Assembly: GCF_964204645.1 (NCBI RefSeq)
Contig: NC_134036.1
Coordinates: 9,775,859 to 9,839,858, forward strand
DNA length: 64,000 nucleotides
From: Tubulanus polymorphus
Taxonomy: Eukaryota; Animalia; Nemertea
Reading direction: 5' to 3'
Shown here: positions 19,370 through 37,576 of the stretch, piece after piece
How positions within the stretch are numbered: position 1 is the first letter of the stretch
Layout of the letters: each line of letters opens with the position of its first letter
Notes under the pieces: generated by a model
Database searches by the model: none
Seen by the model: only the letters and a program-made list of their open reading frames with translations
What the model was told of the DNA's origin: nothing
Position numbers and translations under genes: made by a program

Positions 19370-19823
19370 TCTGTGCAACCTATTGATGCACATATACTCA
19401 GTCTCACAAAATTTTACATAAGACCTAAATTATCTATCTTATACTACTAAATACATGTAAATCAATTCCTGATATTGTGTATTAACTTCCATTTTATTTT
19501 GCACATTTATATTTCCCTTGTATTGATGGTTGACGTTTATTTATTCTTACTTCTCACAATTCTTTTAACTCCAGGCCTAGTATCTGAAAATTATGTATCA
19601 AAATCATGTAGGCAATTGAAAAGGTAACTCATAAAATTCTGCACTGCTAAAATGAAGATGGGTGCACCAGTAATTTTCAGCTATAAAGCAAGTCCAAGGC
19701 AATACTTTATTTTGAGAGGACATTTCATCAGTGACCAACAAAATTTATGCTTGTTTGGGCAACACAAAGATAAGAAAAAAGTAGGAGTCTAGGGCGAATT
19801 AAGGGATAGTGTTGGGGGTCTGG

Positions 19824-20265
19824 AGTAATAGGGATAATGGGCTTTCAGGCCAAAGGTCGAACGGTCGAGCTCGTAAAAAATGAAAAAACATAAAAATAAT
19901 AACAATTTCTACTTGAAGTACTCGCAAAACTCATAAAAATGAAAAATAAATTCTCACACGCTCGAATTTATTTTTCATTTTCATGAGTTTCACTCCTAAT
20001 TCAAGTAGAAATTGTTATTATTTTTATGTTTTTTCATTTTTTCTCACCCGCCCGTTCAACCTTTAGCCAGAAAGCCCATTATCCCTATTACTCTTAAATG
20101 TTATTCATATATATATGAATAATATTTAAATCATTGAACTTCTAAAATCAATTTTAATAAAAAATATAGTATTAAAATGGAAGCAAATAAATACTACTGC
20201 CCAACATGTAATATCGATATAGACAAGTCTCAAAAAGCAAGACACAATAAAACTATAACACATTT
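19824..20265 (+). repeat. Left TIR (442 bp); the first 269 bp form an imperfect palindrome
   Basis: Reverse complement of 36922-37363 with 4 mismatches by manual comparison. 19824-19846 is the exact reverse complement of 20070-20092. Confidence 0.97.
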
Positions 20266-20350
20266 GTTTTTAGTCCAGTTGGTTAAAGCAAAAACATTTA
20301 TCGAATTAAGGAACTCAACACATAGTGAAAAATACGTTGAATCGTTATAA
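20177..20350 (+). CDS. 57-aa chimeric ORF: pPolB N-terminal C2H2 zinc finger (TIR copy) fused to an HNH-paralogue C-terminal tail
   Basis: Manual translation: MEANKYYCPTCNIDIDKSQKARHNKTITHL-FLVQLVKAKTFIELRNSTHSEKYVESL*. It is below the ORF-track length cutoff. Expression unknown. Confidence 0.5.
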   Translation: MEANKYYCPTCNIDIDKSQKARHNKTITHLFLVQLVKAKTFIELRNSTHSEKYVESL

Positions 20351-21494
20351 ACACCTGATAATACTCAGCTATATAGTTGGTTGTATTAACTCTAGTAAAC
20401 ATATGTTACTAGCTTATATTTCAATTGTAAAGAGTTAATTAATTTCATTAATCTAAATGCTTTTATTATTGTTTTTTTCAACTTCAACACGTTGTGTATA
20501 CAGCGAACGTAGCGAATCACAAATCTCATAATTTACAAGTCTCAACACGTTTGTTCTAGATGTTTATACTAGAACATGATTCTATTTGAGCCTATATACA
20601 TTCAATGTACAGAGCCATAGAATAAATCTATAAATTCACAGCTGTTACAGTTGTTACTATAACGACGAGACATTATTACACGTCATAATTAGAAACGTGT
20701 AGAATATTCTAGAACCGGAACTAGATGGCGTGGTATAATCAACGACGTGTCATTCTAGAAATCACCCCGGAAATGGATATACGCTGTAATATTGTGCTCA
20801 GGATATTCTATCTTTCGAAACGAAATTAGGAGTTTATAGTTTACAATTATAAATCTAAATGTAAGTACTGTTTGTTGTAGTTATTAGAGCTATTAAATAT
20901 GAAACCTTTAGATATATTTAAGCGTATTTAGTATATCTTTTAGATTGCTAGAGTTACCGCTAATATCTTTTAGATTAATAAAACGTCATACACATCAAGA
21001 AGCGATAGAGAAACTCAAGATACTCTTTCTGACTGAGGAATCAACAGCAATGGATATCAAACCAATAGAAATTAACACAAGAAACATAAGAATCGCCCAA
21101 AAGATCATCGAAGAAACTATATAAGAATTTCAAAAACATTAAGACTCCAATGATTAAGTTTAACATTTGTTGATGTAGTTAAATATTTACCAGCAATTGA
21201 AAAAATGTTTGTAATTATAAATTGTATTTATAGAAATCAAATGATGTATTGGAAGAAACGACCGAACATCTTGTATAATGTATTGTGTAAATCTGATTTG
21301 TGAATTTTTATGTTCAGTCGTTTCTATTATGTTTAACGCATGTGCATTAAGCAAAACCGGCCATAAATGGCCGGCCGATTGTATTATTTAGATATCAAGG
21401 AATCGAAACTGACTTATCAAAAACAGCGAGGAATGAAAAAGGATGACGTTAGTCGGAGAAATGGAAGAGGATTCTAAAATTATTAACCAATTTA

Positions 21495-21518
21495 GTAAAA
21501 AAATACGTATAATAAATG
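21495..21518 (+). promoter_or_regulatory. A-tract + TAAATG initiator (poxvirus intermediate-like), example of class A
   Basis: GTAAAAAAATACGTATAATAAATG. A similar motif lies before the genes starting at 26173, 32590, 32949 and (as TAAAATG) 37010. Function is inferred. Confidence 0.55.
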
Positions 21519-22184
21519 GAACCAGAACAACCACAAACTATCAATATTACAAATAACACTGGCGTTATAAACATATATTACAAGAAGTGTTCTAAATGTG
21601 AATTAGATAAATTAGCTATAACAGAATTTAGTAAGCGTAAGATTAGCAAAGATGGTTTTCAAAATTGTTGTAAAACTTGTACTAAACTATACACCAAACA
21701 ATATCGAGAAGATAATAAAAAACATTATAATTATTATATGACAAAATATATGAGAGAAAGATATCAAACAGATCTTAATTTTAGATTGAAACAATGCTTT
21801 AGGACTAGAATAACACAATTATTCAAAAAAGAAACACATTCTGAAACACTATCTGATCTATTGGGTTGTTCAGATGAATTTCTCAAATCATGGATAATAT
21901 ATCAATTCGACGATAAAATGAATATAGATAATTATGGTGAATACTTTCATATTGATCACGTGTTACCAATATCTAAATTTAACATGAATGATGAATACAA
22001 TAAAAAACTTATTTGGGGTTGGAAAAATTTAAGGCCTTTAGAAAAGAAAGAAAATCAAACCAAATCTAATAAACTAGATTTACAGTTATATTTGGAACAG
22101 TTAACAAAAGCAAAGAAATTTATTGAATTATGGAACAATAATCCAAATAATGAACAATATGTTGAGTCTTTAATGAGTGGTTAA
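21516..22184 (+). CDS. HNH endonuclease with N-terminal CxxC...CxxC zinc ribbon (NCLDV/phage type)
   Basis: KCSKC..SKDGFQNCCKTC; HIDHVLPISKF...WKNLRPLEKKENQTKSNK (H-N-N). Confidence 0.85.
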   Translation: MEPEQPQTINITNNTGVINIYYKKCSKCELDKLAITEFSKRKISKDGFQNCCKTCTKLYTKQYREDNKKHYNYYMTKYMRERYQTDLNFRLKQCFRTRITQLFKKETHSETLSDLLGCSDEFLKSWIIYQFDDKMNIDNYGEYFHIDHVLPISKFNMNDEYNKKLIWGWKNLRPLEKKENQTKSNKLDLQLYLEQLTKAKKFIELWNNNPNNEQYVESLMSG

Positions 22185-22409
22185 AGAATAATATATCTCA
22201 AATAAAATATAATAAAAATTACATACCTTCAACTAGCCATTATTTCTATTTTAATTTTTAATATTTTCTTTTCAAAAAAGAATACTTTATATCACAAATA
22301 AAAAATACTAAAAAAACAATAACTAATACTAGAATTCTTTAGCTTTAACTAGCTAGTATCATTTGAAGAATACTTATAATATTTTTTTTGCTTTTTTTCT
22401 CTAATATAA

Positions 22410-23012
22410 ATGTCAAAGAAATCTAATAAGAATAGTATTGATATTGAAAAGACATTAGATGATTTGGGTATAAGTGATAATAAAGATACAGTTGCAACTA
22501 ATTGTGCTCAAGTTAATAACAATATAGATTATGAATACTATTTATATTGTAAGCATCATCTTGAATTATTAATTGCTGGCGGGAAATCTAAGGACTTCTT
22601 AGGAAAAATAATAACTTTTCAAGAACTAGACTCTATGAAACCCGATAAAGTAATTAAATATTTTAAGATTTATGAAGAGTCAAGATTAGCTAGAATAAAC
22701 GACTCTATAAGTGATGGTATTATCAAATGTTATTCTAAGTTATGTAACCGGCTAATACCAATTGATGATGAAAATAAATTATATAATGATTTGAAAAATG
22801 ACTATTTAGTTATGACTGAATTACAAAAATGGGTTGGTTATGCTTCATTTCAATTAGGATCGGTTATGACATTGATTTCTACTGGAGTTATAACATTTTC
22901 GAACATCAAACCTATGGAATATAAATCAGGTAAGAACGAAACAGATGTACTACAACCAAACGTCGAAACAGAAGATGAATCAGAACAAAAATTAACTAAA
23001 ATAAATGAGTGA
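22410..23012 (+). CDS. Hypothetical viral protein, 200 aa, hydrophobic segment near the C-terminus
   Basis: Intact ORF with TAAATG start; hydrophobic segment ASFQLGSVMTLISTGVITF. Confidence 0.75.
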   Translation: MSKKSNKNSIDIEKTLDDLGISDNKDTVATNCAQVNNNIDYEYYLYCKHHLELLIAGGKSKDFLGKIITFQELDSMKPDKVIKYFKIYEESRLARINDSISDGIIKCYSKLCNRLIPIDDENKLYNDLKNDYLVMTELQKWVGYASFQLGSVMTLISTGVITFSNIKPMEYKSGKNETDVLQPNVETEDESEQKLTKINE

Positions 23013-23361
23013 TGGAGTTAAGAAAAAGGCTAGATCCGAGAAACAAATTAAATGGGCAAGAGAATTAGGTAAAAGATCATCAGAATTAAAAAAAGCTAAG
23101 AAAAAGAAATTAACTGATATAAATGAATCTGATATTGATTCAAATAATAATCCATCTAATTCTTCTAATGCTGGAAGTAATTATAAATTATATATTACAA
23201 TTGGGTTAATCACAGTTATTATATTATCCGGTGTAATATATAAATCAAAATTCAAATCTGACGATAATGATGAACGTAAACTTCGTTACCCATGTACAGA
23301 CAATAAACCACCAGAAAATAAATCAAATGAAAATAAATCTAAAATATTATTAATGGATTAA
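23005..23361 (+). CDS. Hypothetical viral single-pass membrane protein with basic N-terminus, 118 aa
   Basis: KKKARSEKQ..KKAKKKK followed by TM-like LYITIGLITVIILSGVIY; TAAATG start. Confidence 0.75.
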   Translation: MSDGVKKKARSEKQIKWARELGKRSSELKKAKKKKLTDINESDIDSNNNPSNSSNAGSNYKLYITIGLITVIILSGVIYKSKFKSDDNDERKLRYPCTDNKPPENKSNENKSKILLMD

Positions 23362-23364
23362 AAT

Positions 23365-24453
23365 ATGATGAAAAAAGAACAATATTTAAGAGATTTATAT
23401 TATAACCCAGAAAGTGAAGTATCATATTCTAACGTTTCAGAATTATGGAATAAAATTAAATCCGATAATAGTGATATAAAATATAGTGAATTAAAATCAT
23501 GGTTACAAAATCAACCCACATATCAAATTCATAAAAAGATGGATAAAAAATATTTAACAAGAAAAGTTATGGTTTCATATATTGACCAACAATGGCAAGC
23601 TGATTTAATTGACATGAAAAACTTAGAAGAATATAACAAAGGATATTTTTGGATACTAAATGTTATAGACATATTCAGTAGATACGCATGGAGTATCCCG
23701 ATTAAAAATAAAACTGGTATAGAAGTTACAAATTCTTTCAAATTAATATTTAAAGAAGCTATCCCAGATAAAATACAATTTGATGAAGGTAAAGAATTTT
23801 ATAACAAACATTTTAAAAAACTATTAACTGATAACGATGTAGAATATTTTTCAACACATTCAGATAAAAAAGCATCTGTTATAGAAAGATTTAATAAAAC
23901 ATTGAAAACTAGAATGTGGAAATATTTCACCGCTAATGAAACATATAAATATATCGATGTGTTAGATGATTTAGTGAAAGGTTATAATAATTCTAAACAT
24001 AGTTCTATAAATATGAAACCTATACAAGCTAGAAAAGAAGAAAATTCAGAAATAGTTTGGAATAATTTATATGGAGCATTTGTTACACATGATTTTGGAG
24101 AACCTAAATTTAAAATAGGACAACACGTTAGAATTTCTAAATATCGAAAAACATTTTATAAAGGTTATACCCCTAATTTTACTGAAGAAATATTTAAAAT
24201 TAAAAAGATAATATTAACTAAACCATTTGTTTATAAATTGTTTGATTTAAAAGATGAAGAAATATTAGGTTATTTTTATGAACAAGAATTATCATTAGTA
24301 CCAAATCCAGATGAAATAGAATACAAAATAGAAAAGGTATTGAAAACAAAAACTCTTAAAGGAAAAAAGTATTCTTTGGTGAAATATAAAGGATATGATG
24401 ATAAATTTAATGAATGGATTTTATCTAGTAAAATTAAAAGAATAAATGAATAA
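23365..24453 (+). CDS. Retroviral-like (rve) DDE integrase with C-terminal chromodomain
   Basis: WQADLID, VIDIFSRYAW, QFDEGKEF and IERFNKTLK give the D-D-E triad. Chromo-like YKIEKVLKTK..LVKYKGYDDKFNEWI. ORF intact. Confidence 0.96.
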   Translation: MMKKEQYLRDLYYNPESEVSYSNVSELWNKIKSDNSDIKYSELKSWLQNQPTYQIHKKMDKKYLTRKVMVSYIDQQWQADLIDMKNLEEYNKGYFWILNVIDIFSRYAWSIPIKNKTGIEVTNSFKLIFKEAIPDKIQFDEGKEFYNKHFKKLLTDNDVEYFSTHSDKKASVIERFNKTLKTRMWKYFTANETYKYIDVLDDLVKGYNNSKHSSINMKPIQARKEENSEIVWNNLYGAFVTHDFGEPKFKIGQHVRISKYRKTFYKGYTPNFTEEIFKIKKIILTKPFVYKLFDLKDEEILGYFYEQELSLVPNPDEIEYKIEKVLKTKTLKGKKYSLVKYKGYDDKFNEWILSSKIKRINE

Positions 24454-25057
24454 AGATTTATTTATATTTGAACCACATAATATGTTAGTTACTGGAGTTA
24501 CAAATTGTGGTAAAACACATTTCATATTAGATTTGTTAGAAACTATTTATAAGAATCATTTTGTAAATATAATATTATTCTGTCCTACATATGAAATGAA
24601 TAAAACATATAATAGAGATATAGTTAAGATAAAAAAGTTTATTATATTAGACCCTAAAATAGTAAAAGAAAATTTAGATAATTGTATAAAAATTGTATTA
24701 GATATTTATAAAGGATCAAATACATTATTTATTATTGATGATTGCGCAAATTTACATGATTCTAAAATTAGAGAAAGTGAGTTATGTTATTTAGCTTTCT
24801 CTGGTAGACATTTTGGGATAACAACATGGGTTTTAAATCAGAAATATAATTCAATTGTGAAAGATTTTAGAGAGAATATAAGATTTCTAGTTTTATTCTA
24901 CAACAAAGATAGAAAATTTATGCAACAATCATTGGAAGAAAATCAAATTATATCTACTGAATTACATGATGAATATATGAATAAATTAAAGAATAATAAA
25001 GGTTCAAAATTATTACTGAGATTACAATTTCCATATGAATATAAATTTATAAAATAA
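24446..25057 (+). CDS. A32/FtsK-HerA-like DNA packaging ATPase
   Basis: Walker A GVTNCGKT, Walker B LFIIDD, arginine-finger region SGRHFGITTWVLNQ. Confidence 0.93.
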   Translation: MNKDLFIFEPHNMLVTGVTNCGKTHFILDLLETIYKNHFVNIILFCPTYEMNKTYNRDIVKIKKFIILDPKIVKENLDNCIKIVLDIYKGSNTLFIIDDCANLHDSKIRESELCYLAFSGRHFGITTWVLNQKYNSIVKDFRENIRFLVLFYNKDRKFMQQSLEENQIISTELHDEYMNKLKNNKGSKLLLRLQFPYEYKFIK

Positions 25058-25079
25058 CTATTTGTATACCTATGTATTA

Positions 25080-25158
25080 GATACCCTAATACCTGATACC
25101 CCTAATACCTGATACCCTAATACCTGATACCCTAATACCTGATACCCTATTAGATACC
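25080..25158. repeat. 15-bp minisatellite (GATACCCTAATACCT) x ~5 between the convergent gene blocks
   Basis: Directly visible between the ATPase stop (25057) and the stop of the first minus-strand ORF (25217). Confidence 0.9.
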
Positions 25159-25216
25159 TTAAATAATTTAAACCCCTTTTTTATTTTCTATTATTTTATA
25201 CAATTTTCAACCTTTA

Positions 25217-26173
25217 TTATTCGAGTTTTAGATAATCACTTTCTGAATCACTTTCACTATCAGACGCTAACAACATATTTAAATGCTCTACCGAATCTAC
25301 ACCAACATCTTTATAATTTTTTTTCACCTTTTTCACCTTTTTTACCACACCACCAATAGTTGTTTCATTGTTACGCTTATTGATCCTTTTTATCATATCA
25401 TCAAAAGTTTCTTCTTTATGTTTCATAGAATCTTTTATATCAATATGTTTATCTGTAACTATATCATCATGTGGGTGTATGGCATCATTTTCATTATCAT
25501 CTTTATTAGTGTTTGCTCCTAATATTTCATTTACAGTGTTTGATCCTAATATTTCATTAGCATCGGTTAAATCTAATTCATCTTTATTAGGTGTTGCTAA
25601 TAATAAATCTTCATATATTTTTTCACCATTTACTTTTTTATTTGAAACAAACTTTGTAACATATCTAAATGGGTGTTCTATAAATTCTCTTAAACCAACA
25701 CGTTCTATAACATTAGTAATATGTAAATTTGTATTCATATGTTTATTCCAATTTGATGGAGCGTTTGAAAATTCACCATTACAATAACCACAATAATTTC
25801 TATTTTCACTAACATCTAATATTATTTTATTATTAGATGTAGAAGGTATTACGTTATTAGATGTAGTAGGTATTACAGATGTAGTAGGTATTACGTTATT
25901 AGATGTAGTAGGTATTACGTTATTAGATGTAGTAGGTATTACAGATGTAGTAGTAGGTATTACAGATGTAGTAGTAGGTATTACATTATTATCAATTACA
26001 CTATTATTAACAACACCACTTTTATTATAATCGATTTCTATTAGTTTAGTTTTATAATTTTTAAAAATAGGATCAAATATCAAAGCTATATTACAAGGTA
26101 TTACATAATATAAACCATCATTATTTTCATGTGTATCGATGTATGGAATATGTTTATATACTTTACCTTCCAT
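25217..26173 (-). CDS. Hypothetical viral protein, 318 aa, with VIPTTS(NN) repeats and one C2H2-type zinc finger
   Basis: About 7 VIPTTS-type repeats; YCGYCNGEFSNAPSNWNKHMNTNLH; basic/acidic tail; TAAATG start. Confidence 0.8.
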   Translation of the reverse strand: MEGKVYKHIPYIDTHENNDGLYYVIPCNIALIFDPIFKNYKTKLIEIDYNKSGVVNNSVIDNNVIPTTTSVIPTTTSVIPTTSNNVIPTTSNNVIPTTSVIPTTSNNVIPSTSNNKIILDVSENRNYCGYCNGEFSNAPSNWNKHMNTNLHITNVIERVGLREFIEHPFRYVTKFVSNKKVNGEKIYEDLLLATPNKDELDLTDANEILGSNTVNEILGANTNKDDNENDAIHPHDDIVTDKHIDIKDSMKHKEETFDDMIKRINKRNNETTIGGVVKKVKKVKKNYKDVGVDSVEHLNMLLASDSESDSESDYLKLE

Positions 26174-26205
26174 TTATTATATATATTTTTATTAAAGTTA
26201 AAATT

Positions 26206-27453
26206 TTAATACATAACACTATCTAATTGTGAATTTATAATATTTAATTGTGCGTCAGATATAATATAAATATGCATTTTAAAATTTTTGATTCCCTTTT
26301 TCTTTGTCATGAATAATTGTATTCCATCTTTAGTGTTTTGTAGTTTTTTTCCAGAACCATGTAATGAATTATCTTCAGTTGTTCTAAAATCTAACCATAA
26401 TGCATATTTATTACCGGTATAATAATCAATTTGATTAATGTTACAATTTTCAAATGATTTTACTTTTTCATTCATAAAATGTTTTTTAATTTCTACCCAT
26501 TGATCTATCATTCTCATTCCTTGACAAAATATCTTATTCGCTATTCCTTCAATAGTTATTTCTACTTTTGTTATTTCAGGATTATAATAATTGTCAACAT
26601 TTATTGCGCCATTAGTATACGTTCCAATAGTAAAAAATATTAATATACCTTTAATAGATCTTCTAGGAAAGTTAATATTCTCATTTATTATTTCATCATT
26701 TGCATTAATAGTTACAGTTTTAAATTTATCAATATAATCATATAATAATGAAAATCCTTGATTGTATTGAGTTTGAATTGTTCTAGCAATATTTTCATCA
26801 GTTACTGTATCATATTCTAAACATATATTCGATAATTTATAACTCATATCTTTATTAACGCTAGATAATACAATTTCATTTACAGGAGCAAATGTTATCT
26901 CAAATATAACATCTTCTTGAATTGCGTATTTATATAAAGGTGCATTATTATTTATCAATTCAAAGTCTAATGGAATTTTATATTTGCTTCCATATATACT
27001 TTTTATTAATTTATCTACATCATTTGTTAATATTGCGCTATTAGCTTCTGATCTTAATTTATTTTGGTTTTCTGATTGGATTCCTTGAAATATCATATTA
27101 TTTCTGTTTTCTTTAGTTAACCATAAATCTTTATAGTGCATAAATAAATTATAATCATCTAATGAGAAAACTGTTTCTGGACCAATCTTTATTGTTAACT
27201 TTTTAATCAAATATCTTCCAACATTATCAACAACATAATTATTATTATTACCGATTACTTTTATATCAGCTGATAAATAAATACTGTTTGGAACGTAAAA
27301 AGTATTTTGTGTTAATCTAGGAATTCTAACGTATAAAGTTTCATCGGGATTAATATTTGAAGGGTTATGAGTAATTATATGATGTGATCTTTCTGCTTTA
27401 ATAGCATTAGATATTCTAGAAATCTTAGAAGGACTTATATAACTCCCACTCAT
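26206..27453 (-). CDS. Putative major capsid protein (double jelly-roll), 415 aa
   Basis: Size, beta-rich pattern (NPSNINPDETLYVRIP..VPNSIYLSADI..NVGRYLIKKLTIKIG..PRRSIKGILIFF..YALWLDFR) and context in a pPolB/ATPase element. The fold is inferred, not computed. Confidence 0.8.
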   Translation of the reverse strand: MSGSYISPSKISRISNAIKAERSHHIITHNPSNINPDETLYVRIPRLTQNTFYVPNSIYLSADIKVIGNNNNYVVDNVGRYLIKKLTIKIGPETVFSLDDYNLFMHYKDLWLTKENRNNMIFQGIQSENQNKLRSEANSAILTNDVDKLIKSIYGSKYKIPLDFELINNNAPLYKYAIQEDVIFEITFAPVNEIVLSSVNKDMSYKLSNICLEYDTVTDENIARTIQTQYNQGFSLLYDYIDKFKTVTINANDEIINENINFPRRSIKGILIFFTIGTYTNGAINVDNYYNPEITKVEITIEGIANKIFCQGMRMIDQWVEIKKHFMNEKVKSFENCNINQIDYYTGNKYALWLDFRTTEDNSLHGSGKKLQNTKDGIQLFMTKKKGIKNFKMHIYIISDAQLNIINSQLDSVMY

Positions 27454-27470
27454 TTATTTAACAAAAAAAT
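27451..27470 (-). promoter_or_regulatory. T-tract + TAAATG initiator (poxvirus late-like), example of class T
   Basis: The minus strand reads TTTTTTTGTTAAATAAATG at the MCP start. The same architecture occurs at 22410, 28925, 30330, 30782, 31224, 31470 and 31818. Confidence 0.6.
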
Positions 27471-27473
27471 TAA

Positions 27474-28925
27474 TTATTTATTTTTAATCATATTCACTAA
27501 CCCAAAAATAATTGCACTTACAACTGTAATTAAAAATAAAATAATATGTTCAGCAGCAAAGTTAAGAATATTACCTGCAGATTTTAAAACAAAACCAACA
27601 ATTGAAGCAATAACTCCTGGTAGTGCTGCAGCAGATTTCTTTGATAGTTCCCATAAATATTTTGCTAATTTCTTTAAACCATCTTTAACTTTATCTTATA
27701 TAGAATTATTACCTGGAGGTTTATCTGGTTTATTTGGAGTAGGAGTAGATTTTAAAGCATTTGATATAGCTAAACCTATTGTTGTAAATAACATAGTTAC
27801 AGCTGTTAGAATTGAAAGAATTGTTATTCCTTCAAACTTAAATAATAATTTTATTCTGTCTTTTAGTGATATGTCAGAATTTGGTTTTAGTATTAACTCT
27901 TTAACAACAACTTTTAATCTATTAATACAATAATCATATGATTTTAATAATAATTTCATTTTTTCTTTCTGAAATTCTATGTTATATTCTAAATCATCAA
28001 TTTCTTTTTCTAAATATGCATTTCTTTTTTTAAATTCAATTTCTTCAATAACTTTAGATTCTCTATCTAATTTTAATTGTTCTAATTCTTTTCTGGTGTC
28101 AAATAATTTATTTTCTAAAGGTTTAATTTTATTATATCTAATATGTTTTTCGCGAGCAATTTTATCAGCTTCATCTCGTATACTTATTATTTCTCTAATT
28201 GTTTTTTTAGAAAACATACTTAAAGCTTCTATTTCTTGATCTGTTGCATCAAGTAATCCATTCGGTAAAAGTTTTTCAGTTTGAACTTCAGTGTTTGATT
28301 TAAGTTTACTAGTTTTGGAAGTTATATTCTGTTCAGAAGTTGTTTCTGGTTCTAAATTATTATTGATTGTTTCAAATAATTCATTAATTCTTTGTTTAAA
28401 TACTCTTTCATTTTTAATAATTTCTTCTTGTGTTACATCTTCTATTTCATTACTATTTCTTATTCTTTTAATTCTAGATAGTAATGAGTCAGACTTAAGC
28501 AAAGTTGATTCTGCTAATATTTTGTTTTGTTTTTTATAAGAGATATCAATATAATAATCATCTTTCAAACGATAATAATATTCACCATCTAAAAACTTTA
28601 ATTCTTGTACTAAAAGTCTAGCGCCTCTGGTATTTATATTATATCCAGAATCTTTAAATACATGTTGAAAATCATACATAAATTCATTATATTCTAAATT
28701 TTGTTTTACTAAATCTGGATTTTCATTTTCAGGATTTATTCTCGATCTAGTTCTTCTATCAAATTCATCTGTTGATTGACCTTTAGAACCACTATCTGCT
28801 AAATTAGAATTATATGCTGATTCATCATCATTATCAATATTAGTTTCTGCATCATTATAATCATCATCAATATATCCTTCATTATTATTTCCCATGTCAT
28901 CCAATGGAATATCTTCTACATCCAT
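27474..28925 (-). pseudogene. Coiled-coil membrane protein (~483 aa) with one premature TAA at 27696-27698
   Basis: The frame continues past the stop as DKVKDGLKKLAKYLWELSKKSAAALPGVIASIVGFVLKSAGNILNFAAEHIILFLITVVSAIIFGLVNMIKNK*. Acidic N-terminus, long coiled coil, hydrophobic helix, Pro linker, then amphipathic and TM helices. Confidence 0.85.
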
Positions 28926-28941
28926 TTACATAATAAAAAAA

Positions 28942-30330
28942 TTAAAATTTAAAATATAATATTCCTCCGATTACAATTCCTATACAAGTTATAGCTAATT
29001 TAGTATTTTCATGGGATTTATTATCATCATTTAGTTTAATTATATCATGTTGAATTTTATCAGTTCTATTATTTTCTGATGTATTGTAATCTTTTATTTT
29101 AGAATCATTATCCAATTTAATATTTTTAGTTTTAGTTTCAGTTGATTGAATGTGTTTTTTATTTTTTTCACCTTCCATTAATTTTGGAGCAGTAATAATC
29201 TTTTTATTTATATCATTCAATCCGAATGAATTATTTATTGTTGCAGTTTTAATTAGATTATTATAACCAATTATGTTTTCCATCTTTAATACTAAATCAT
29301 TAGAAATAATTAATAGATTAGGGCCTATACAATAATTTAGTCTTACATGAGATTTATCTAAATAATTTTGATATCTTATAATGTTTTCTGGAATCGATCT
29401 ATTTTTATCATTATGTATGGAATCTTCAAATAAAACTTTAAACTGTTTTTGTGTATCGAATGATGTATTCAAATTTCCAATTATCGGTGATCTTGTTTCA
29501 ACTTGTGATCCTAGAATACAAATCAAATAAGTTCTAATAGATTGATTTATTCTTTCTATACCTGATTTAGTAAAACCTTCACTATTTTCTAAAATAAAAT
29601 AAACCCAACCATTATTGTTTTCTTGTTTTAAATTATCATAAAATTTCGGTAATTTATTGAAATTTAATGTTTCTAAATCATTTGTTTCTATTTTACCATA
29701 ACCTAATTTTTTATTATAGATATTATAAAAACTATTAGATGGTATGGGAAGTGCACAATATTCTGCAATCTTTCTAGGGCAAGGAAGTGATCTTATTGTT
29801 CCAATTTTTGTTCTAAAATCAGAATTATTTATATTTATATTAAATTCATTACAAATTTTATAAAACTTTGATAAATTGATATTATCATCTAATTCTTTGA
29901 AATACCTAGATCCTGGTAAAGCGCACTCTAATTCATTTAATATTATTCTGATTTGAAAGTATGTATGAAATCTAAATAAACTTTGAATTAGTTTATATTT
30001 AGAATTATTCAAATGATCATTCCAACTAATTCCACATCCTGTTGCTGCACAATAAACAGCAAAATTTAATTGATTCTGCCAATACTTCATATTAGATTTT
30101 AATAACCATTGTTTTTCATCTTTCAATTTTTTAAAATTAATTAAATATACATGAAATATATTTTCCATCTTTGCATTAAAATTATTAGTTTCAGTAACAT
30201 AAATTTCTAAATTAGTTAATGAATCTAAAACTTCATTTCTATATGTAATATCTTTATTAAAATCTATTGCAGGAATATTATATTTAATTGATTTATTATA
30301 TTGGAAAGCTTTTGGAAAACTATCTACCAT
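28942..30330 (-). CDS. Hypothetical viral protein, 462 aa, C-terminal membrane anchor
   Basis: Intact ORF; WQNQLNFAVYCAATGCGIS motif; terminal LAITCIGIVIGGILYFKF. Confidence 0.85.
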   Translation of the reverse strand: MVDSFPKAFQYNKSIKYNIPAIDFNKDITYRNEVLDSLTNLEIYVTETNNFNAKMENIFHVYLINFKKLKDEKQWLLKSNMKYWQNQLNFAVYCAATGCGISWNDHLNNSKYKLIQSLFRFHTYFQIRIILNELECALPGSRYFKELDDNINLSKFYKICNEFNININNSDFRTKIGTIRSLPCPRKIAEYCALPIPSNSFYNIYNKKLGYGKIETNDLETLNFNKLPKFYDNLKQENNNGWVYFILENSEGFTKSGIERINQSIRTYLICILGSQVETRSPIIGNLNTSFDTQKQFKVLFEDSIHNDKNRSIPENIIRYQNYLDKSHVRLNYCIGPNLLIISNDLVLKMENIIGYNNLIKTATINNSFGLNDINKKIITAPKLMEGEKNKKHIQSTETKTKNIKLDNDSKIKDYNTSENNRTDKIQHDIIKLNDDNKSHENTKLAITCIGIVIGGILYFKF

Positions 30331-30347
30331 TTATATAATTAAAAAAA

Positions 30348-30782
30348 TTAATAATTTATTAATTCTTTTAATAATTTATCTTGTTCTTCAACTGTTATAT
30401 GACCATTTAAACTTATTATATAATCTAGTGTGTTCTTTAATTTATTAATTTCTTTTATATTACTTTTGATTTTTTCTTTATTACTTTTTATATTTAATTT
30501 TGAACTTAAACCAGTTAAAACACTTGAACTTAATCCTAATACACCAATTGTTATAGCTAAAGGTGTTAATGGACTAAATATTGCTAGAAATGTTATTACA
30601 GAACTAATTGTAACCGAACCACTTATAATCACATAATATATAATTTTACTTTTTAAATATTTTTTCTTTTTTATCTTTAAGTCACTTTCAAATTCTAATA
30701 TTTGTTTTTCTAAATATATTTTTAATTTAGTTTTATTTATATCATGAGGAATAATATCAATACTATCAACTTTATCTTCCAT
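30348..30782 (-). CDS. Two-TM hairpin protein flanked by coiled coils, 144 aa
   Basis: IIYYVIISGSVTISSVITFLAIF-SPLTP-LAITIGVLGLSSSVLTGL; TAAATG start. Confidence 0.8.
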   Translation of the reverse strand: MEDKVDSIDIIPHDINKTKLKIYLEKQILEFESDLKIKKKKYLKSKIIYYVIISGSVTISSVITFLAIFSPLTPLAITIGVLGLSSSVLTGLSSKLNIKSNKEKIKSNIKEINKLKNTLDYIISLNGHITVEEQDKLLKELINY

Positions 30783-30801
30783 TTATTTAGAATAAAAATT
30801 A

Positions 30802-31224
30802 CTAATTAGTAAACTTATAAGCAACAAATATAACAATAACAGTTCCACCTAAAATCCATATTATTTCATATTTCTGTTGTTCTTTACTTGGGGTATAATA
30901 ATCTGATAATTTGGGTTTGTATAGATGTAATTTTTCTTTATTGGTTACTGCGTTATATAAACTCATTGCATCATCAACTGATTGAAAATCTCTATGTGAA
31001 ATCTTCTGATCATATAATTCTTTGTTAATATAATCCATATAGTTTTGTCTCTTTTCTCTATATTCTTCTGCAGCTTTATTGTATTTCTCTAACGCTAAGT
31101 TATGTCTTCTTTGTTCTCCTAATGAACTATTTTTATCAATATGTTTAAATAAATAACCACCACCAGTAAATGCTAAAGCGTTAACAATTGCCGATCCTAT
31201 AATAGTTATAATTGCAGAAGCCAT
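30802..31224 (-). CDS. Small membrane protein, 140 aa, hydrophobic N- and C-termini
   Basis: MASAIITIIGSAIVNALAFTGGGYLF ... IIWILGGTVIVIFVAY; TAAATG start. Confidence 0.8.
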   Translation of the reverse strand: MASAIITIIGSAIVNALAFTGGGYLFKHIDKNSSLGEQRRHNLALEKYNKAAEEYREKRQNYMDYINKELYDQKISHRDFQSVDDAMSLYNAVTNKEKLHLYKPKLSDYYTPSKEQQKYEIIWILGGTVIVIFVAYKFTN

Positions 31225-31248
31225 TTATTTAGCAAAAAAATTATGCAT

Positions 31249-31470
31249 TTATATGGGAGGAATATATTTTTGTTTTTCCAAATAATCAATTGTTAAATTA
31301 GATAAAGTAACCGCTAATGTTAACTTTAAAATATCATTTATATCAAATCTATCAACATTAACACTTCCCATTTTGAATACTTTTTTTAATACCATTGAAT
31401 AACCAACCGTTCCAACTGATAGTAATGCGCCATTATATAATCCAGTTATTATCCACTTATTATCACTCAT
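31249..31470 (-). CDS. Small hydrophobic protein, 73 aa
   Basis: Two hydrophobic/amphipathic stretches; TAAATG start abutting the upstream stop. Confidence 0.75.
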   Translation of the reverse strand: MSDNKWIITGLYNGALLSVGTVGYSMVLKKVFKMGSVNVDRFDINDILKLTLAVTLSNLTIDYLEKQKYIPPI

Positions 31471-31818
31471 TTATTTATCAAAAAAATTACTATCTTCAAA
31501 ATATTTAGTTATCTTAGTGATGATTATTTCAACATTTATTTCATTACTAGTTTTATGATTATCATATATTTCAATTATTATTTTTTTAATATCATCGATG
31601 ATAAAATCTTCATCTAATTCGTAAAATCTTAAAGACTCAGTAATCTTTTCTACATTAAAAGTTTCTTTATCTATTGTTGTTTCATACTCAAATGTTGTTT
31701 CATTAGAAAATGCAATATTTTTGATATGTGTAATTACATCATTAATGTTAAATTTCATTTCTTTCTCACGTTTAAAATCAAATCCAAAACATATACTCGG
31801 TCCAACAGTTATAATCAT
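31471..31818 (-). CDS. Hypothetical acidic protein, 115 aa
   Basis: Intact ORF that tiles the gene block; TAAATG start. Confidence 0.65.
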   Translation of the reverse strand: MIITVGPSICFGFDFKREKEMKFNINDVITHIKNIAFSNETTFEYETTIDKETFNVEKITESLRFYELDEDFIIDDIKKIIIEIYDNHKTSNEINVEIIITKITKYFEDSNFFDK

Positions 31819-31834
31819 TTATATAGTGAAAAAA

Positions 31835-32590
31835 TTACTCTTTACATCTTATAACTAATTCATATATCACAGGAAAGTTATTTAAATCAATTAAGTATCC
31901 ATTATGATTTCTTATTTCTAATTTAAAATTATTAAATTTAGGAATGCAAGGTTTAAAATCACATTCTGTTAAATTATAATTTATTTGAGTTCCAAATTGT
32001 TTAACATTTTTTAGCGGTAAAATATTTAGTATACTAGAACTACAAATTGTTTCTTTAGTTGCTTCGAAAGTTTTTGTAGGCTCGATTAAATTGCAATAAA
32101 TATAAAAGTGTGTAAAAGGTATTATATTTGAGCTGCCTTCTGCGTTTCCAGTAACTGTAAGTGGTTTAATTCCTAACATTTTAGCCAGTGGTTTGTTTAC
32201 CATAAATTTATGTTGTTCATTAGATATTTTTATTCTTATTTTATTAGTACTATCAATTTTATTAAATTTAATTTCAAATACAGAACTACCCCCGATTTTC
32301 AACCGAGCTCTTCTATTAATTTCCTGCGCTAATGATTCTAAATTATATAATCCTGGTTTTAAAAATATATGAAACCATTTATCTTTATTTCTCATATAAA
32401 TCATAAACCCTCTATGTTCAAAAGTTTTATCCGATATATTATAAAAAGAATTACATAAACTTATATTAACTAATTTTAAATCTACACAATTCTTAAATTC
32501 TCTATCTAATTGAACTAGTAAATTATGAGATTTATAATTTGTAAGTTTTCTAGAATCAACAAATATTCTGTATTCTTTTAATTCCACCAT
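31835..32590 (-). CDS. Putative minor capsid (penton, single jelly-roll) protein, 251 aa
   Basis: Penton-like pattern IFVDSR..LKLVNISLCNSFYNI..PGLYNLESL..LAKMLG..YIYCNLIE..LEIRNHNGYLIDLNNFPVIYELVIR. Confidence 0.8.
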   Translation of the reverse strand: MVELKEYRIFVDSRKLTNYKSHNLLVQLDREFKNCVDLKLVNISLCNSFYNISDKTFEHRGFMIYMRNKDKWFHIFLKPGLYNLESLAQEINRRARLKIGGSSVFEIKFNKIDSTNKIRIKISNEQHKFMVNKPLAKMLGIKPLTVTGNAEGSSNIIPFTHFYIYCNLIEPTKTFEATKETICSSSILNILPLKNVKQFGTQINYNLTECDFKPCIPKFNNFKLEIRNHNGYLIDLNNFPVIYELVIRCKE

Positions 32591-32607
32591 TTATTTTACA
32601 TATTTTC

Positions 32608-32949
32608 TTATTCGAAATCAATATCGTGGTGCCCTTTTTCATTCTTACCTTTGTATACGAAATAGAAATCTCCAGAACATAATTCTTTTAGATCTTCACT
32701 TGATAATCTATGAAATCTATCTGGTAAATAAGTTCTGAATTTATATTTATTTCCTTTTAATCCTTCATATTCTAAATGAATTACTAATTTATCTCCATAT
32801 TTGTTAGTAACTGTAACAATATTTGTAATTAAATATTTCTTGTGAATTGTTAATTCTGTTAACTTTTTGAATTTATAATCTACAGATTTTACATTTGTGG
32901 TATCTTTAACTCTATCTAAGAATTCACTGTGTACTTGTTTACTCTCCAT
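32608..32949 (-). CDS. Small beta-rich protein, 113 aa, possible OB-fold nucleic-acid-binding protein
   Basis: FKKLTEL..KKYLIT..TNKYGDKLVIHL..TYLPDRF..FVYKG; adjacent to pPolB. The fold is an inference. Confidence 0.65.
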   Translation of the reverse strand: MESKQVHSEFLDRVKDTTNVKSVDYKFKKLTELTIHKKYLITNIVTVTNKYGDKLVIHLEYEGLKGNKYKFRTYLPDRFHRLSSEDLKELCSGDFYFVYKGKNEKGHHDIDFE

Positions 32950-32977
32950 TTATTATACAAATTTTTATTGAAATTTA

Positions 32978-35900
32978 TTAACACGTTAGAATCCTTTTCA
33001 TAATTTCATTTTCTTTTGTTTCTTCTCTTTTGAATTTTATATATTCATCTAAATTGCAACCATAGGCGACTGTGTGGATTCCATCATCTAAAATATATCT
33101 TTTATCATCAAATGGGTTTAGACTTATCTTCTCTATCTCTTCAATAAACATTTCGTGGTACTCAGATCTTAAACATTTCATCTTATGTTTTCTAACTTCT
33201 TCATTAAATATACAATTGATGTAATCTTTGAAATGAATATTCTTTTCTACTACACTTTTAGTAATTCCTTTTAACTTTTTAGCTTCATGTTCTTTAGTTT
33301 TATATGAATACATTTTAGATCTAATACCAATGAACTCTATCATTTCTTCACCACCTAATTCATCCTTAAACTTCCCAGGAACTTTTTTATTATCATTGCT
33401 AAACAATTCATGATTTTTTGGATAGTTACTAAAATCAAAATGATGTTTTAATGATTTTAAATCATCTTTTATATTATCACTTTTTATCTTTAATATATAA
33501 CTGTCAGTATCTAGATATAATATTTCTATATTTTTTTCTCCAAAATGGGGTTGTAATATGTTATAGTAAAATTGAAACATTAATAATTTTGAAATTTCTA
33601 GAACTGATGCACCAACATAAATAGGTTTATTGAACTTCATAGAAGTTCTTCTCATTTTAACTGCTGCTAAATTTTCATCAAATATTCTGTTGCCTATAAA
33701 TTTCGGATACGATTGTAAATGTCTAATTCTTTTACCATTACTAACTAACTCAATATCACTTCTATTTCTTATGTTTTCGCAAGTCTTACCATAGAACGCA
33801 TTATTCATTAGTTTAAAGTAATCTTTTTCAAAATCAGTTTTAGCTTCAGTTCTCTGTGTAGTATTAAAATCTATATATTTTTCTAACCACTTAGATTGAT
33901 TAAATGAAATATATCTATGTACTTTTTTTAATATCATTCCTTGATTCAAATAGAATTTTAACATTCTATAATGCACAACGTAATTATATTTATCTTCTTG
34001 AGTTACCATTAACTTTTCAGTATGAATATGATTATCGGGTTTAATTCTTTTTTGATAATTTGATAATTCTTCATGTTTAACAATTTTATGTTCGGGACAA
34101 TATGCTAGATTTCTAGATTTGAATTTAATATTTTCGGGGTATTCTAAATCTACAACAAAGAAGTAACCAATATCTGAATCATCTGCAATATCTAGGATTC
34201 TTTTCTTCCAATCAAATTTATCAATTTGTAAAACTTCAGTTATTTCAAACATCCCATAAGGTTGTGGTTCCATCATTGCCCAACCATAAAGATTATTTGC
34301 ATCTATGTATAATAATTTATATCCAGGATTATCATTTACATTGAAATATCTATCACCCAATACACCTGAAACACCTCCTCTTATAGATTTTTCAAATAAT
34401 AGTAATTGATCTATATTTGTTAACAAATCCATTTTTATATCTGTAAATTTTAATCCACAATCCCATGTTAATCCTGGTGATGAATAACAATGACATGGAT
34501 CAATGTTAAAATATTTTAGGTTTACATCTCTAAACCTTTCGAATATATCAGTTAATAATAATACATCTGATTTTAAATATAAATCTACTAATTGTCCATG
34601 ATTTTCTATTTTGAAATGATTCCAAATATTCAATGTTCTATTATAAACTTCATCTTTAACATATTCATTTTTTAATTCATCATAGAATTGTTCTTTCAAT
34701 AATTCAGTTATTTTAAAATCATTATGATTTTTATAGAAAGAATATGGAATCGCTCCTTTATATCTCATTAATTTAAAATCATCATAATTTGGGTAATATT
34801 CTTTTAATATCTTTAATTCATCATCAACTAATGATTTAGATAAGTTATCTAATGAACTATTTAAAAATCTATATGAATCTATAAATCTTAAGCATCCAAA
34901 TTGGAATGATATATAATTCTCAGATGTTTTAGCTAACATTCTAAATTTATAAGTTGGTATTTTATCTTTTGATCTATTTGAATTTAATATTTCTATTTCA
35001 TTATTAATTTCTTCTATTTTATGACATAGTTGCTTAATGAATAAATGCGCGTCATATCCTGATAGATTATGAAATATAACTGGTACAAAATTAATTTTCT
35101 TAGCTTGTAAGTTACAATTCTCATGTGCAGCGCCTCTAAACTTTCCGTTCAAATGATCATGGTCTCTTACTTTTTTATCTTTATAATTAAATATCTTTTC
35201 ACAATAATAACATTTATCTGTAAACTCAAATACTTCTTTATCTTCTTCTGTCATAATTATTTCTTTATTTGTATTCAATAATTTACTAAATCTTATTTCA
35301 TATTCAATTAATAAGTCACAAAAATGATTGATAACATTTTCATTTCTATAATTATAATATTCACTTTCAATTAGTTCTGGGTAATCAGATTTTATATATA
35401 ACCCGAAAGCAGCAGCTGATTGATGAATCTTTTTAATAGTATTTGTTATTGGTGGTTCATCTGAAAAATCATTTTCATTAGAATTTAATTTCTTTCTTTT
35501 ATAATATATTTCTTTTCTATCTTGATCAGTTAATTCTTTATTTAATGATTCAAAATCTCCATATATTACAAATGGTACTTTATTTTTGTAATCATATTTT
35601 TTTGAATTCTAATATTTTATCTTTTTCATTTGGTAAAACTAATTTACAATAATCATGATTATCACATAGTTGTTTATGATTTAATAATGTACTTTCATTA
35701 CTAAATTTATGTAAACATTTTCTACATAGATATATTTTATGGTGATCATTTTCTGATTTGAAAAATAAATCTATTTGTTTAATCCAAATATAATGATTCT
35801 CATAATATAGTATATCTATAACATCGTTTGAATCATAATCTTTTGATAGGTATAAAGGTTCTAATGTATAATGTTTAATATTATTTCCTTTCGTATTTGG

Positions 35901-37010
35901 TAATTTAATTAAATCAAATACATTTATCTTTAAATTATTATCTCATTCTATTTTGGGGATGTTTTTAATTCTAACAGGATACTTATCTATCTTATAATTA
36001 TTTTCAAATTGTTTATAATGAGTTAATCTATAAGTATGTTTATTATAATCTTCAACTGGATGTAAACAACTTATTATAGCCCATAGAAAACATTTATCAT
36101 CTTCATTTTGTATATTTATTACAGCATTAGTTTTAAATGGTAGTTTAATATAACTTGATGCTTCAATATCGGGTTCTTTATAATATGATAAATTATTTTC
36201 ATCAATTGGTTTTGATTTAGTTAACTTATTATATTTTGTGTTATAAACATGTAAAGTTATAAATATTATCTCATCAAATATTAAACCAGATCCTTCAAAA
36301 TATTTTTCTTCTATTTTAGTTTTTATTTCATTATAACATTTATTTAATTTATCATCTATATGTTGTTTAGATATAATATGTTGTGAATGAGAATTTATAT
36401 TATATATTGGTTTATCTTCAGATTTTATAAACTTTACTTTAACTGATATACTAATTTTAGGATATTCAACATCTGTAATTATTTTTATTATTTCTTTCAT
36501 ATTTTCTAAATGTTTTTTATTTTCTTCTAATGTTTTACCTTTATGAAATTTAAACTCGATAGCTGCTGGACCAATATCACTTTTAAATGCTTCGGTTATC
36601 TCTATATCTTTTTTATTATCTAATGAATTAATATAATTTCTTACATCTTCCATATATGGTCTTTTATTGTTTAATTTATTTTTTATTCTTTTAATTGTCT
36701 TCTGTTTCTTATCGTTATCATTATCAAAATAATCTTCACCTAAAATATCATTATTCTTATTTCTAATATGACTTATAGATTTTAAATGTTCTTTATAATA
36801 TCTTTTATCACTGAATGATTGATTACATGTATCACATTTATATGTTTCTTTTTCATTCTTTAATTCTTCTAATTTAGTTTCTAATATATCATCCTTATAT
36901 TCTAGTTTCAATTTATTCTCTAAATGTGTTATAGTTTTATTGTGTCTTGCTTTTTGAGATTTATCTATATCGATATTACATGTTGGGCAGTAGTATTTAT
37001 TTGCTTCCAT
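32978..37010 (-). pseudogene. Protein-primed family B DNA polymerase (~1343 aa reconstructed) with one in-frame TGA and one +1 frameshift
   Basis: Exonuclease motifs YGDFES, FHNLSGYD and YLKSDV. Polymerase motifs YIDANNLYGWAM, KLMNNAFYGK and YLDTDS. EndoVII-like CYYC..VRDHDH..AHENCN insert and N-terminal C2H2 fingers. TGA at 35943-35945; the A7 run at 35597-35603 shifts the frame. Confidence 0.95.
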
Positions 37011-37363
37011 TTTAATACTATATTTTTTATTAAAATTGATTTTAGAAGTTCAATGATTTAAATATTATTCATATATATATGAATAACATTTAAGAGTAAT
37101 AGGGATAATGGGCTTTCTGGCTAAAGGTTGAACGGGCGGGTGAGTAAAAATGAAAAAACATAAAAATAATAACAATTTCTACTTGAATTAGGAGTGAAAC
37201 TCATGAAAATGAAAAATAAATTCGAGCGTGTGAGAATTTATTTTTCATTTTTATGAGTTTTGCGAGTAATTCAAGTAGAAATTGTTATTATTTTTATGTT
37301 TTTTCATTTTTTACGAGCTCGACCGTTCGACCTTTGGCCTGAAAGCCCATTATCCCTATTACT
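36922..37363 (-). repeat. Right TIR (442 bp); includes the first ~30 codons of pPolB; last 269 bp palindromic
   Basis: Reverse complement of 19824-20265; hairpin at 37095-37363. Confidence 0.97.
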
Positions 37364-37576
37364 GTCTGGATCCCTGCCTTCCTACTGAGGTTGCCCTTTC
37401 AGGACAGAGAAAATGAAAATCTGTAAATTTGACACTCATTCTCAGAAATGCAGCTTTTCACATGCATTTCTTCGAATATATCTAAAACATAGGGTCGGAC
37501 CCTGATAGAGGCCTTTGACATAGCTGCTATATCTAAGAAATACCTTTTATTTCTTTCTGGACCCCAGCCTTCGATT

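Follow-up and report, generated by a model that had tools for sequence, protein, structure and literature searches.

The window, the entire 64,000-nt stretch of DNA analysed here, carries a 17.5-kb integrated virus-like element at 19824..37363 (21–28% GC). Its termini, 19824 and 37363, coincide with 442-nt inverted repeats that are 99% identical (4 mismatches), the left at 19824..20265 (plus strand, beginning AG) and the right at 36922..37363 (minus strand), and both flanks bear the same 6-bp target-site duplication, GTCTGG (19818..19823 and 37364..37369), 6-bp duplications being a trait of the Polinton/Maverick family. Nucleotides 1–269 of the left repeat fold as a single long imperfect hairpin (DNA fold −98.3 kcal/mol, a value with no shuffled baseline), and this repeat carries a copy of the start and first codons of the gene for pPolB, the protein-primed type B DNA polymerase; the right repeat, also with a hairpin, contains the pPolB promoter and start. 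The insertion is polymorphic, and the empty site (joint 19817–37364) is present in runs X1 and X6; the family is multicopy, with tens of germline copies. pPolB, an rve integrase, an A32-type packaging ATPase, a double jelly-roll capsid and terminal repeats with a 6-bp duplication are all present, and the element is an integrated, multicopy Polinton-type DNA virus.

Genes start at TAAATG unless stated otherwise and are assigned to an A-run or a T-run class by their upstream sequence. On the plus strand lie a 222-aa HNH-nuclease-like ORF (21516..22184; A-run) with no Pfam match of its own, whose homolog in relative L012 matches HNH weakly (E 0.0055); a conserved 200-aa ORF (22410..23012; T-run); a 118-aa ORF with one hydrophobic segment (23005..23361; A-run); the rve integrase with a C-terminal chromodomain (23365..24453; start TAAAATATG; Pfam rve E 7.9e-9, above cut-off, and Chromo E 8.2e-5); and the packaging ATPase (24446..25057; A-run; Pfam Pox_A32 E 1.5e-10). 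The minus strand encodes a 318-aa ORF containing Thr/Ser repeats plus a putative zinc finger (25217..26173; A-run) and the double jelly-roll major capsid protein (26206..27453; T-run; AlphaFold pLDDT 84), followed by a coiled-coil/membrane-anchored ORF (27474..28925, lower end approximate; T-run) that ends prematurely in this copy at a stop at 27696–27698, with 73 more open codons beyond, and has a 485-aa homolog in L001. Next come a conserved 462-aa protein with a C-terminal hydrophobic segment and 43 homologs (28942..30330; T-run), whose model (pLDDT 77) has no BFVD or PDB match at E ≤ 0.001 (best Z 3.7); a 144-aa two-helix membrane protein (30348..30782; T-run; SLATT_fungal E 0.003, below cut-off); conserved ORFs of 140 aa with hydrophobic ends (30802..31224; T-run) and 73 aa (31249..31470; T-run); a 115-aa ORF (31471..31818; T-run); a probable minor capsid protein (penton) of 251 aa, with weak matches to Pfam DUF5901 (E 0.0018) and, by profile, PBCV-1 P1v1 (E 0.69) (31835..32590; A-run); and a 113-aa ORF (32608..32949; A-run). 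pPolB itself (32978..37010; minus strand; start TTAAAATG; A-run; Pfam DNA_pol_B_2 E 7.3e-16) carries zinc fingers at its N terminus and an insert resembling endonuclease VII (Pfam Endonuclease_7 E 6.3e-5). This copy of the gene is broken: a stop lies at 35943–35945, and the reading frame changes somewhere between about 35611 and 35594.

We confirmed that TAA immediately precedes the ATG of 14 of 16 genes, at every start named in the original prediction, with pPolB (at 37010) and the integrase (at 23365) as the two exceptions; in both of them TAAA lies no more than 6 nt from the ATG. The accompanying claims also held: 11 of 15 intergenic gaps, counting overlaps, are ≤32 nt, the other four being 159–242 nt, and Pfam finds no RNA polymerase subunit among the element's 17 ORFs, which encode no recognisable transcriptional polymerase or transcription factor. 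TAAATG is much rarer by chance, occurring at 37 of 637 other ATGs within the element (5.8%) and at 8.4% of first ATGs after a stop in all six frames, while TAA makes up 9.6% of trinucleotides in the same upstream stretches; binomial P values for 14 of 16 under these rates are 5e-16, 8e-14 and 6e-13, respectively. The motif might still be a by-product of AT richness, of stop–start packing (translational coupling) or of translation-start context, given the element's low GC content and tightly packed genes. One start, 31470, does use the upstream gene's stop (gap 0), as was claimed, but it is the only one among the 14 TAA triplets. A Kozak context has a purine at −3, where 14 of the 16 genes have a T, so a translation-context reading fits badly.

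The start signal is bipartite, consisting of an A- or T-run, a fixed T, eight bases and TAAATG. All 14 TAAATG starts have a T nine bases further upstream, compared with 15 of the 37 TAAATG sites elsewhere in the element (P = 6e-5); across 13 related loci T occupies −9 at 48 of the 54 ORF starts and at 20 of the 76 remaining sites. Eight genes have a T-run upstream and seven an A-run, and the T-runs stop 6–8 nt ahead of TAAAT in all eight. Vaccinia intermediate and late promoters likewise place TAAAT(G) over the start codon with a T- or A-rich upstream part at a fixed distance: late promoters have a T-rich stretch with a conserved T at the tenth base upstream and intermediate promoters are A-rich upstream (PMC11980589), with a spacer of about 5–7 bp (PMC5294985). 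By the present count the element's T at −9 lies one base off the vaccinia figure. Unlike the vaccinia promoters, the signal described here sits on 17.5 kb of integrated DNA without a polymerase, and its promoter role is putative. By sequence, the signal has both parts of a poxvirus post-replicative promoter in their full arrangement.

Trans-splicing occurs in several invertebrate phyla, and a T-run close upstream of eight starts in tightly packed genes could instead be the pyrimidine tract of a splice acceptor that resolves polycistronic nuclear transcripts. We consider this scarcely credible, as none of the eight T-run genes has an AG between the T-run and the ATG and seven genes have an A-run in its place.

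The motif follows ancestry rather than base composition. Among relatives whose capsids are ≥50% identical, TAAATG occurs at 34 of 44 homologous starts across 13 loci (41 of 51 across 15 loci before removal of two near-copies), whereas those at 37–49% identity have it at 0 of 28 starts in 7 loci (0 of 38 in 9 loci); since neither genes sharing a locus nor loci sharing a clade are independent of one another, this contrast counts as one or two evolutionary events. In a GC-matched comparison the figures are 14 of 18 versus 0 of 10. TAAATG is retained in relatives of up to 44% GC: L004–L006 (36–44% GC) have it at 7 of 9 starts versus 10 of 374 other ATGs, and the sister group, at 29–38% GC, at 0 of 10. 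Two AT-rich contigs from Polinton-like viruses (PLVs) carry it at 1 of 16 ORFs. In a quick tree of capsid homologs plus one bivalve protein, 16 of 17 TAAATG-labelled capsids fall in one clade (SH-aLRT 98), supporting retention of the motif in a single capsid clade regardless of GC content, as far as the sampled sequences go. Divergently transcribed gene pairs in L007–L009 also keep the motif. Together with the T at −9, the clade and GC-range comparisons largely refute the by-product explanation, which we hold to be very improbable.

In another reading the element is an autonomous nuclear virus or transposon and the motif is its own core promoter or initiator, from which host RNA polymerase II, perhaps helped by a factor that the element encodes, makes leaderless mRNAs. 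The element does integrate in the nucleus in many copies, several genes have AATAAA close to their ends, and the sister group carries another motif near its starts: in L017 and L021, 15 of 15 starts have TATA no more than 22 nt away, suggesting that such motifs might be lineage-specific inventions. Against this, a TATA-like box at −3 would place the RNA polymerase II transcription start past the ATG, and the match to poxvirus promoters spans initiator, spacing and two upstream classes. AATAAA lies inside several A-run promoters and downstream of the 26173 gene and could serve as a nuclear poly(A) signal, but it is undepleted in coding strands (70 vs 68.8 in the window; 142 vs 145 in the clade). 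TTTTTNT is depleted there about threefold (window, 3 vs 9.2; clade, 14 vs 41.4), which speaks for pox-type transcription, although the depletion is weaker but present in controls (ratios 0.57 and 0.62) and extends to A-runs. We regard autonomous nuclear expression as unlikely.

A cytoplasmic RNA polymerase of pox type probably reads the element's promoters in trans, as part of a virophage-like lifestyle; a helper-type promoter ahead of the genes and the lack of an RNA polymerase of its own are both virophage-type traits. The two-part signal would serve as an intermediate/late promoter of poxvirus type, and the RNA polymerase would come from a cytoplasmic pox-type virus co-infecting the host. 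Transcription would begin in the AAA, with slippage producing 5′ poly(A) leaders, and A-run genes (pPolB, ATPase and probable penton) would be expressed ahead of T-run genes (those for the major capsid and membrane proteins). The element would then replicate by its own pPolB, package in its own capsid and integrate by its own rve integrase, integrated copies staying silent until helper infection. To reach tens of germline copies the element needs access to the nucleus, for which a purely cytoplasmic cycle alone does not account; the model also leaves unexplained the route by which helper machinery would get to a provirus in the nucleus.

The original prediction of transcription by a pox-like virus stood as regards the motif, which is real, has the poxvirus layout, is conserved in its clade irrespective of GC content and is missing from AT-rich relatives and from two AT-rich PLVs; the identity of the supplier is less secure, and it could be a pox-type machinery from outside the poxviruses. 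The pox-related polymerase of yeast linear elements uses a TAAAN initiator with poly(A) slippage (PMC6211774), and the pGKL initiator resembles the element's TAAAT(G) at the start codon, so the motif marks pox-type machinery rather than Poxviridae. The supplier might thus be an uncharacterised Pokkesviricetes-like virus or a polymerase-encoding sibling linear element, as with yeast pGKL2. This alternative shares its mechanism with transcription by a pox-type virus, and we weighed it as a sibling element with no virus helper. In that form it is quite improbable: neither the element nor 23 ORFs of relatives encode a polymerase subunit, the largest protein of unknown function (462 aa) has no fold match to polymerases, and the upstream layout fits poxvirus late/intermediate promoters rather than the yeast UCS (PMC6211774).

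Among known systems, Mavericks/Polintons (Polintoviricetes; adintoviruses, Starrett et al., PMC8502044) share with the element its size, inverted repeats, 6-bp duplication, pPolB, rve integrase, A32 ATPase, capsid fold and integration in animal genomes. In contrast to them, it has several membrane-type ORFs, a poxvirus-type layout at nearly every gene and no cysteine protease: Pfam finds no protease family at E ≤ 0.05 among the 17 ORFs, including the adenovirus-type cysteine protease of group 1/2 Mavericks, and the 462-aa protein has no fold match. The word 'promoter' is absent from the main text of PMC8502044. Mavirus and the EMALEs of Cafeteria also combine rve integration and pPolB with a helper-type late promoter and no RNA polymerase. 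EMALE types differ in promoter motif, reactivation being confined to the type that bears the CroV late motif, and in mavirus-like elements a match to the helper promoter predicts reactivation (PMC10945749). The present element differs in residing in an animal rather than a protist and in using TAAATG rather than the CroV TCTA motif. Foldseek ranks PBCV-1 (E 2.7e-16) and iridovirus (SGIV, E 6.4e-16) capsids above that of mavirus (rank 38, E 7e-12, TM 0.54); by this ranking and the lack of a Pfam protease match, the element does not have the virophage-type (Maveriviricetes/Virophaviricetes) capsid and maturation protease.

PLVs present in entomopoxvirus occlusion bodies (Barth et al. 2024, PMC11296320) are likewise Polinton-like and proposed parasites of an invertebrate poxvirus, to which co-sequencing from the occlusion bodies ties them. 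Compared by description, they differ in being about 12 kb long and all having a cysteine protease, with rve integrase reported in none; 'promoter', 'TAAAT' and 'transcription' are absent from that main text. Gezel-14T (PgVV), a PLV, relies on a large DNA virus for transcription and bears its promoter, but its promoter motif is the mimiviral early AAAATTGA and its recombinase is of the tyrosine type (10.1101/2022.07.28.501842). Aquintovirus-like animal elements, noted outside the Maverick groups in octocorals, hydrozoans and bivalves (10.64898/2026.06.19.733378), are similar to ours by description.

To our knowledge, most animal Polintons have no established virions or helpers, and whether they are autonomous nuclear or helper-dependent is an open question; the literature searched yielded no report linking Polinton gene starts to poxvirus-type promoters. 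One Polinton clade wired for poxvirus-type transcription is a sequence-level, cheaply testable prediction that would extend the virophage model from protists to the animal germline, predict a pox-type virus in a host where none was seen in this analysis, and offer promoter motifs as a means of pairing Polintons with helper viruses. More tentatively, this clade of animal Polinton-type viruses may be germline parasites of an undiscovered invertebrate poxvirus lineage, with an intermediate-then-late programme copied from the helper and a related branch that has turned to a different large DNA virus, asfarvirus-like or other, and its TATA-type initiator; we think this possible, though less probable than not being so. 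If it were true, endogenous Polinton promoters would record the large viruses infecting each animal, and the elements could restrain these viruses as a brake that is inherited and inducible; the antiviral role originally suggested is speculation.

Counting against the pox-type reading, no helper virus or pox-like sequence turned up in the window or in any related locus retrieved. The 23 ORFs scanned from relatives include no pox polymerase subunit; they encode a deoxynucleoside kinase, none of whose 22 homologs bears a poxvirus name, together with a Bcl-2 homolog and a weak VLTF3-like match.

We examined the start of each gene in the Polinton-type element at 19824–37363 and found TAAATG at 14 of 16, as the original prediction had claimed; under each of three null rates (5.8%, 8.4% and 9.6%) the binomial P value is below 1e-12. 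The TAA doubles as the stop codon of the upstream gene in just 1 of the 14 cases, also as claimed, and stop–start coupling was therefore rejected as the cause. Translation starts usually favour a purine at −3, a preference that is reversed by the T present at this position in all 14 starts, indicating that TAAATG is no translation context and leading us to reject a Kozak explanation.

To control for base composition, we used 43 related loci from a metagenome scan, scoring starts that line up with the point where a homologous gene of the element begins; the resulting counts are non-independent events. Loci with capsid identity of at least 50% carry TAAATG at 41/51 starts (15 loci; 34/44 without the near-copies L008 and L013), the misses including integrase starts, internal ATGs chosen by the scoring rule, and locus L014, whereas at 37–49% identity the count is 0/38 (9 loci; 0/28 without L018 and L026). 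AT richness was rejected as the source because the contrast persists between GC-matched relatives, with 14/18 starts in eight loci of 30–44% GC (at least 50% identity) versus 0/10 in four loci of 29–38% GC (37–49% identity). Elsewhere TAAATG was scored at 0/2 starts in L030, 0/1 in L032 and 1/16 in two AT-rich PLV contigs, and L022, L023, L027, L029, L031 and L033–L043 had no scorable start. In a tree of 78 capsids built by a quick maximum-likelihood method, 16 of 17 TAAATG-labelled rows fell in one clade (SH-aLRT 98), and the motif is kept across capsids that share no more than 50–55% identity. L014 carries the TAAATG label in the tree, yet its capsid start reads TAAATGAATG and it scored 0/2. 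Outside the clade, L028 (29% capsid identity, 44% GC) has TAAATG at 2/2 scored starts and 3/3 long ORFs, which would mean that the motif either arose twice or is ancestral and has been lost in other lineages. Scans of viral contigs with the capsid, a capsid alignment, pPolB and the integrase returned no relatives, the ATPase alignment retrieved only two distant PLVs, and two short fragments from a scan of prokaryote genomes were left out of scoring. A member of the TAAATG clade, capsid P0046 is listed in a Bartonella assembly, where it is probably host DNA; a capsid from the bivalve Mactra antiquata (39%) falls outside the clade. One cargo gene, a deoxynucleoside kinase at L001:10343–10981, also has a TAAATG start.

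The motif has a second, upstream part that divides the genes into two classes. In eight genes (22410 and the block 27453–31818), 5–7 T end 6–8 nt before TAAAT; in seven (21516, 23005, the ATPase at 24446, 26173, 32590, 32949 and pPolB at 37010), an A-run ends 9–10 nt before it. A T lies exactly nine bases upstream at 14/14 TAAATG starts versus 15/37 other TAAATG sites in the element, and at 48/54 ORF starts versus 20/76 other sites in 13 related loci. As described in PMC11980589, TAAAT(G) of the vaccinia late promoter overlaps the start codon, with T conserved at the tenth base upstream among other Ts, and the intermediate promoter has TAAA preceded by an A/AT-rich stretch and then T; PMC5294985 puts the late-promoter spacer at about 5–7 bp. 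The element's motif matches these vaccinia promoters closely, its fixed T being one base off by our count. A trans-splice acceptor was rejected as the role of the T-run, as the interval from T-run to ATG lacks AG in all eight T-run genes. Searching viral contigs for the T-run promoter pattern gave four matches, all in phage-like contigs unrelated to the element.

The relatives with 37–49% capsid identity show a different motif: TATA, often TATAG, lies at most 22 nt before the ATG at 15/15 scored starts of L017 and L021 (47–49% GC) against a background of 6–7% (P < 1e-8 each). This motif resembles the late TATA initiator of ASFV, but AT-rich PLVs are likewise TATA-rich upstream. Its presence suggests that start-proximal promoter types are lineage-specific, as in the EMALE types described in PMC10945749, and a switch of helper possibly separates this group from the TAAATG clade. 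TATA near the ATG also occurs in L016, L018–L020 and L024, all outside the TAAATG clade; in the group it often follows TTCT and sits too near the ATG for a Pol II TATA box. L017 carries two cargo ORFs, one encoding a Bcl-2 homolog (E = 2e-18) and the other weakly VLTF3-like (2448–2858 and 6543–7049); the latter fails to align with the element's 144-aa ORF.

Coding strands contain fewer copies of the poxvirus early terminator TTTTTNT than expected (3 versus 9.2 in the window, 14 versus 41.4 in the clade); controls gave 7 versus 12.3 and 11 versus 17.8, and A-runs are somewhat depleted as well. AATAAA is undepleted in the clade (70 versus 68.8 and 142 versus 145), is depleted in the TATA group (14 versus 22.3), and is present near some gene ends. 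The combined pattern leans towards cytoplasmic transcription and is not decisive.

The TAAATG feature is real and well supported, with a clade-level control, and from it we infer a mechanism. The motif probably acts as a promoter for post-replicative transcription of the pox type, with the machinery provided in trans by a large DNA virus of the cytoplasm. This reading does not explain how such machinery would reactivate a provirus in the nucleus. Intermediate-like promoters would drive the element's polymerase and ATPase, and late-like promoters its capsid and membrane proteins, followed by replication, packaging and integration. The predicted transcription by a pox-like virus is favoured by the two-part motif and its conservation in the clade. 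Neither the window nor 23 scanned ORFs of relatives yielded a helper gene. There are precedents for such a lifestyle: mavirus-like elements reactivate only if they bear the late motif of the helper (PMC10945749), Gezel-14T carries the early motif of its helper (10.1101/2022.07.28.501842), and co-sequencing from entomopoxvirus occlusion bodies yielded PLVs (PMC11296320). Yeast linear elements also use a TAAAN initiator (PMC6211774), so the supplier need not belong to Poxviridae.

Its gene content makes the element a Polinton, broadly defined. Among its 17 ORFs, Pfam searches recognised an rve integrase that carries a chromodomain, an ATPase of the A32 type and a protein-primed polymerase B containing an insert similar to endonuclease VII, and found no protease, transcription factor or RNA polymerase, the last agreeing with the original prediction. 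The 415-aa ORF has a predicted double jelly-roll fold nearest to PBCV-1 and iridovirus capsids, and the 251-aa ORF is a weak penton candidate; the 462-aa ORF has 43 homologs and its predicted structure no fold match, which is not evidence of a new fold. The element differs from group 1 and 2 Mavericks in that no protease was found and from virophages in the kind of capsid, and may belong among the animal elements outside Maverick groups mentioned in 10.64898/2026.06.19.733378. In the open full texts searched, none of the matches listed ties poxvirus promoters to the gene starts of Polintons; those retrieved for TAAATG and promoter comprised four poxvirus studies and one on wheat. PMC11296320, PMC8502044, both 2026 PLV preprints and the egovirus preprint never use the word 'promoter' in their main texts, and the link was not met in passages of PMC11788076, 10.1101/2025.10.09.676808, 10.1101/2025.04.19.649669 and PMC13359090. 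The helper-promoter virophage lifestyle is known; here it would take a pox-type form in an animal germline.

The element forms an island of 21–29% GC in an animal-type background of 33–46%, bounded by 442-nt inverted repeats that are 99% alike (first bases AG, last CT) and flanked on both sides by a duplicated GTCTGG. LINEs in the flanks mark the host as an animal, probably an invertebrate. In the window copy, pPolB is interrupted by a stop at 35943–35945 and shifts frame near 35600; the gene starting at 28925 also ends early, and reads from other copies mostly differ at these damaged sites. In X6, an independent DNA run under the same species label (about 12% read), depth was about 100–800 in element bins versus about 12 in the left flank, 44,381 of 74,420 aligned reads were just 90–95% alike to the element, and 12 reads, together with one contig in the compared data set X1, contained the empty insertion site. 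Together these results show that the element family comprises roughly tens of diverged copies and that the window insertion is polymorphic. Runs X7, X8 (RNA by guess) and X9 had no reads on the element and are uninformative on expression.

Each terminal repeat opens with an imperfect hairpin of 269 nt whose stem is AT-rich (19824–20092 and 37095–37363), and strand-switch joints in reads at these hairpins might reflect flipped palindrome forms. The vaccinia early consensus AAAAnTGAAAA occurs eight times in the window versus 1.7 expected; the six copies in the element all lie in the hairpins (19876–20041 and 37146–37311), two of them facing pPolB from about 240–300 nt upstream. Being copies of one palindromic unit, they may have arisen by chance. 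Inside the left repeat, about 1.2 kb (20266–21515) lacks any ATG-started ORF of at least 60 aa and varies among copies; it may be a cargo slot that has decayed or whose content varies. Short tandem repeats (CCCTAATACCTGATAC-like) at 25070–25160 mark the convergence of both transcription blocks, beside a T-rich and AATAAA-rich stretch. The host flanks contain decayed LINEs with RVT_1, an ORF that we take to be transposase-like (no Pfam match) and a 75-bp tandem array, jointly at 3748–5931, 9570–12199, 51399–53365 and 54727–55701.
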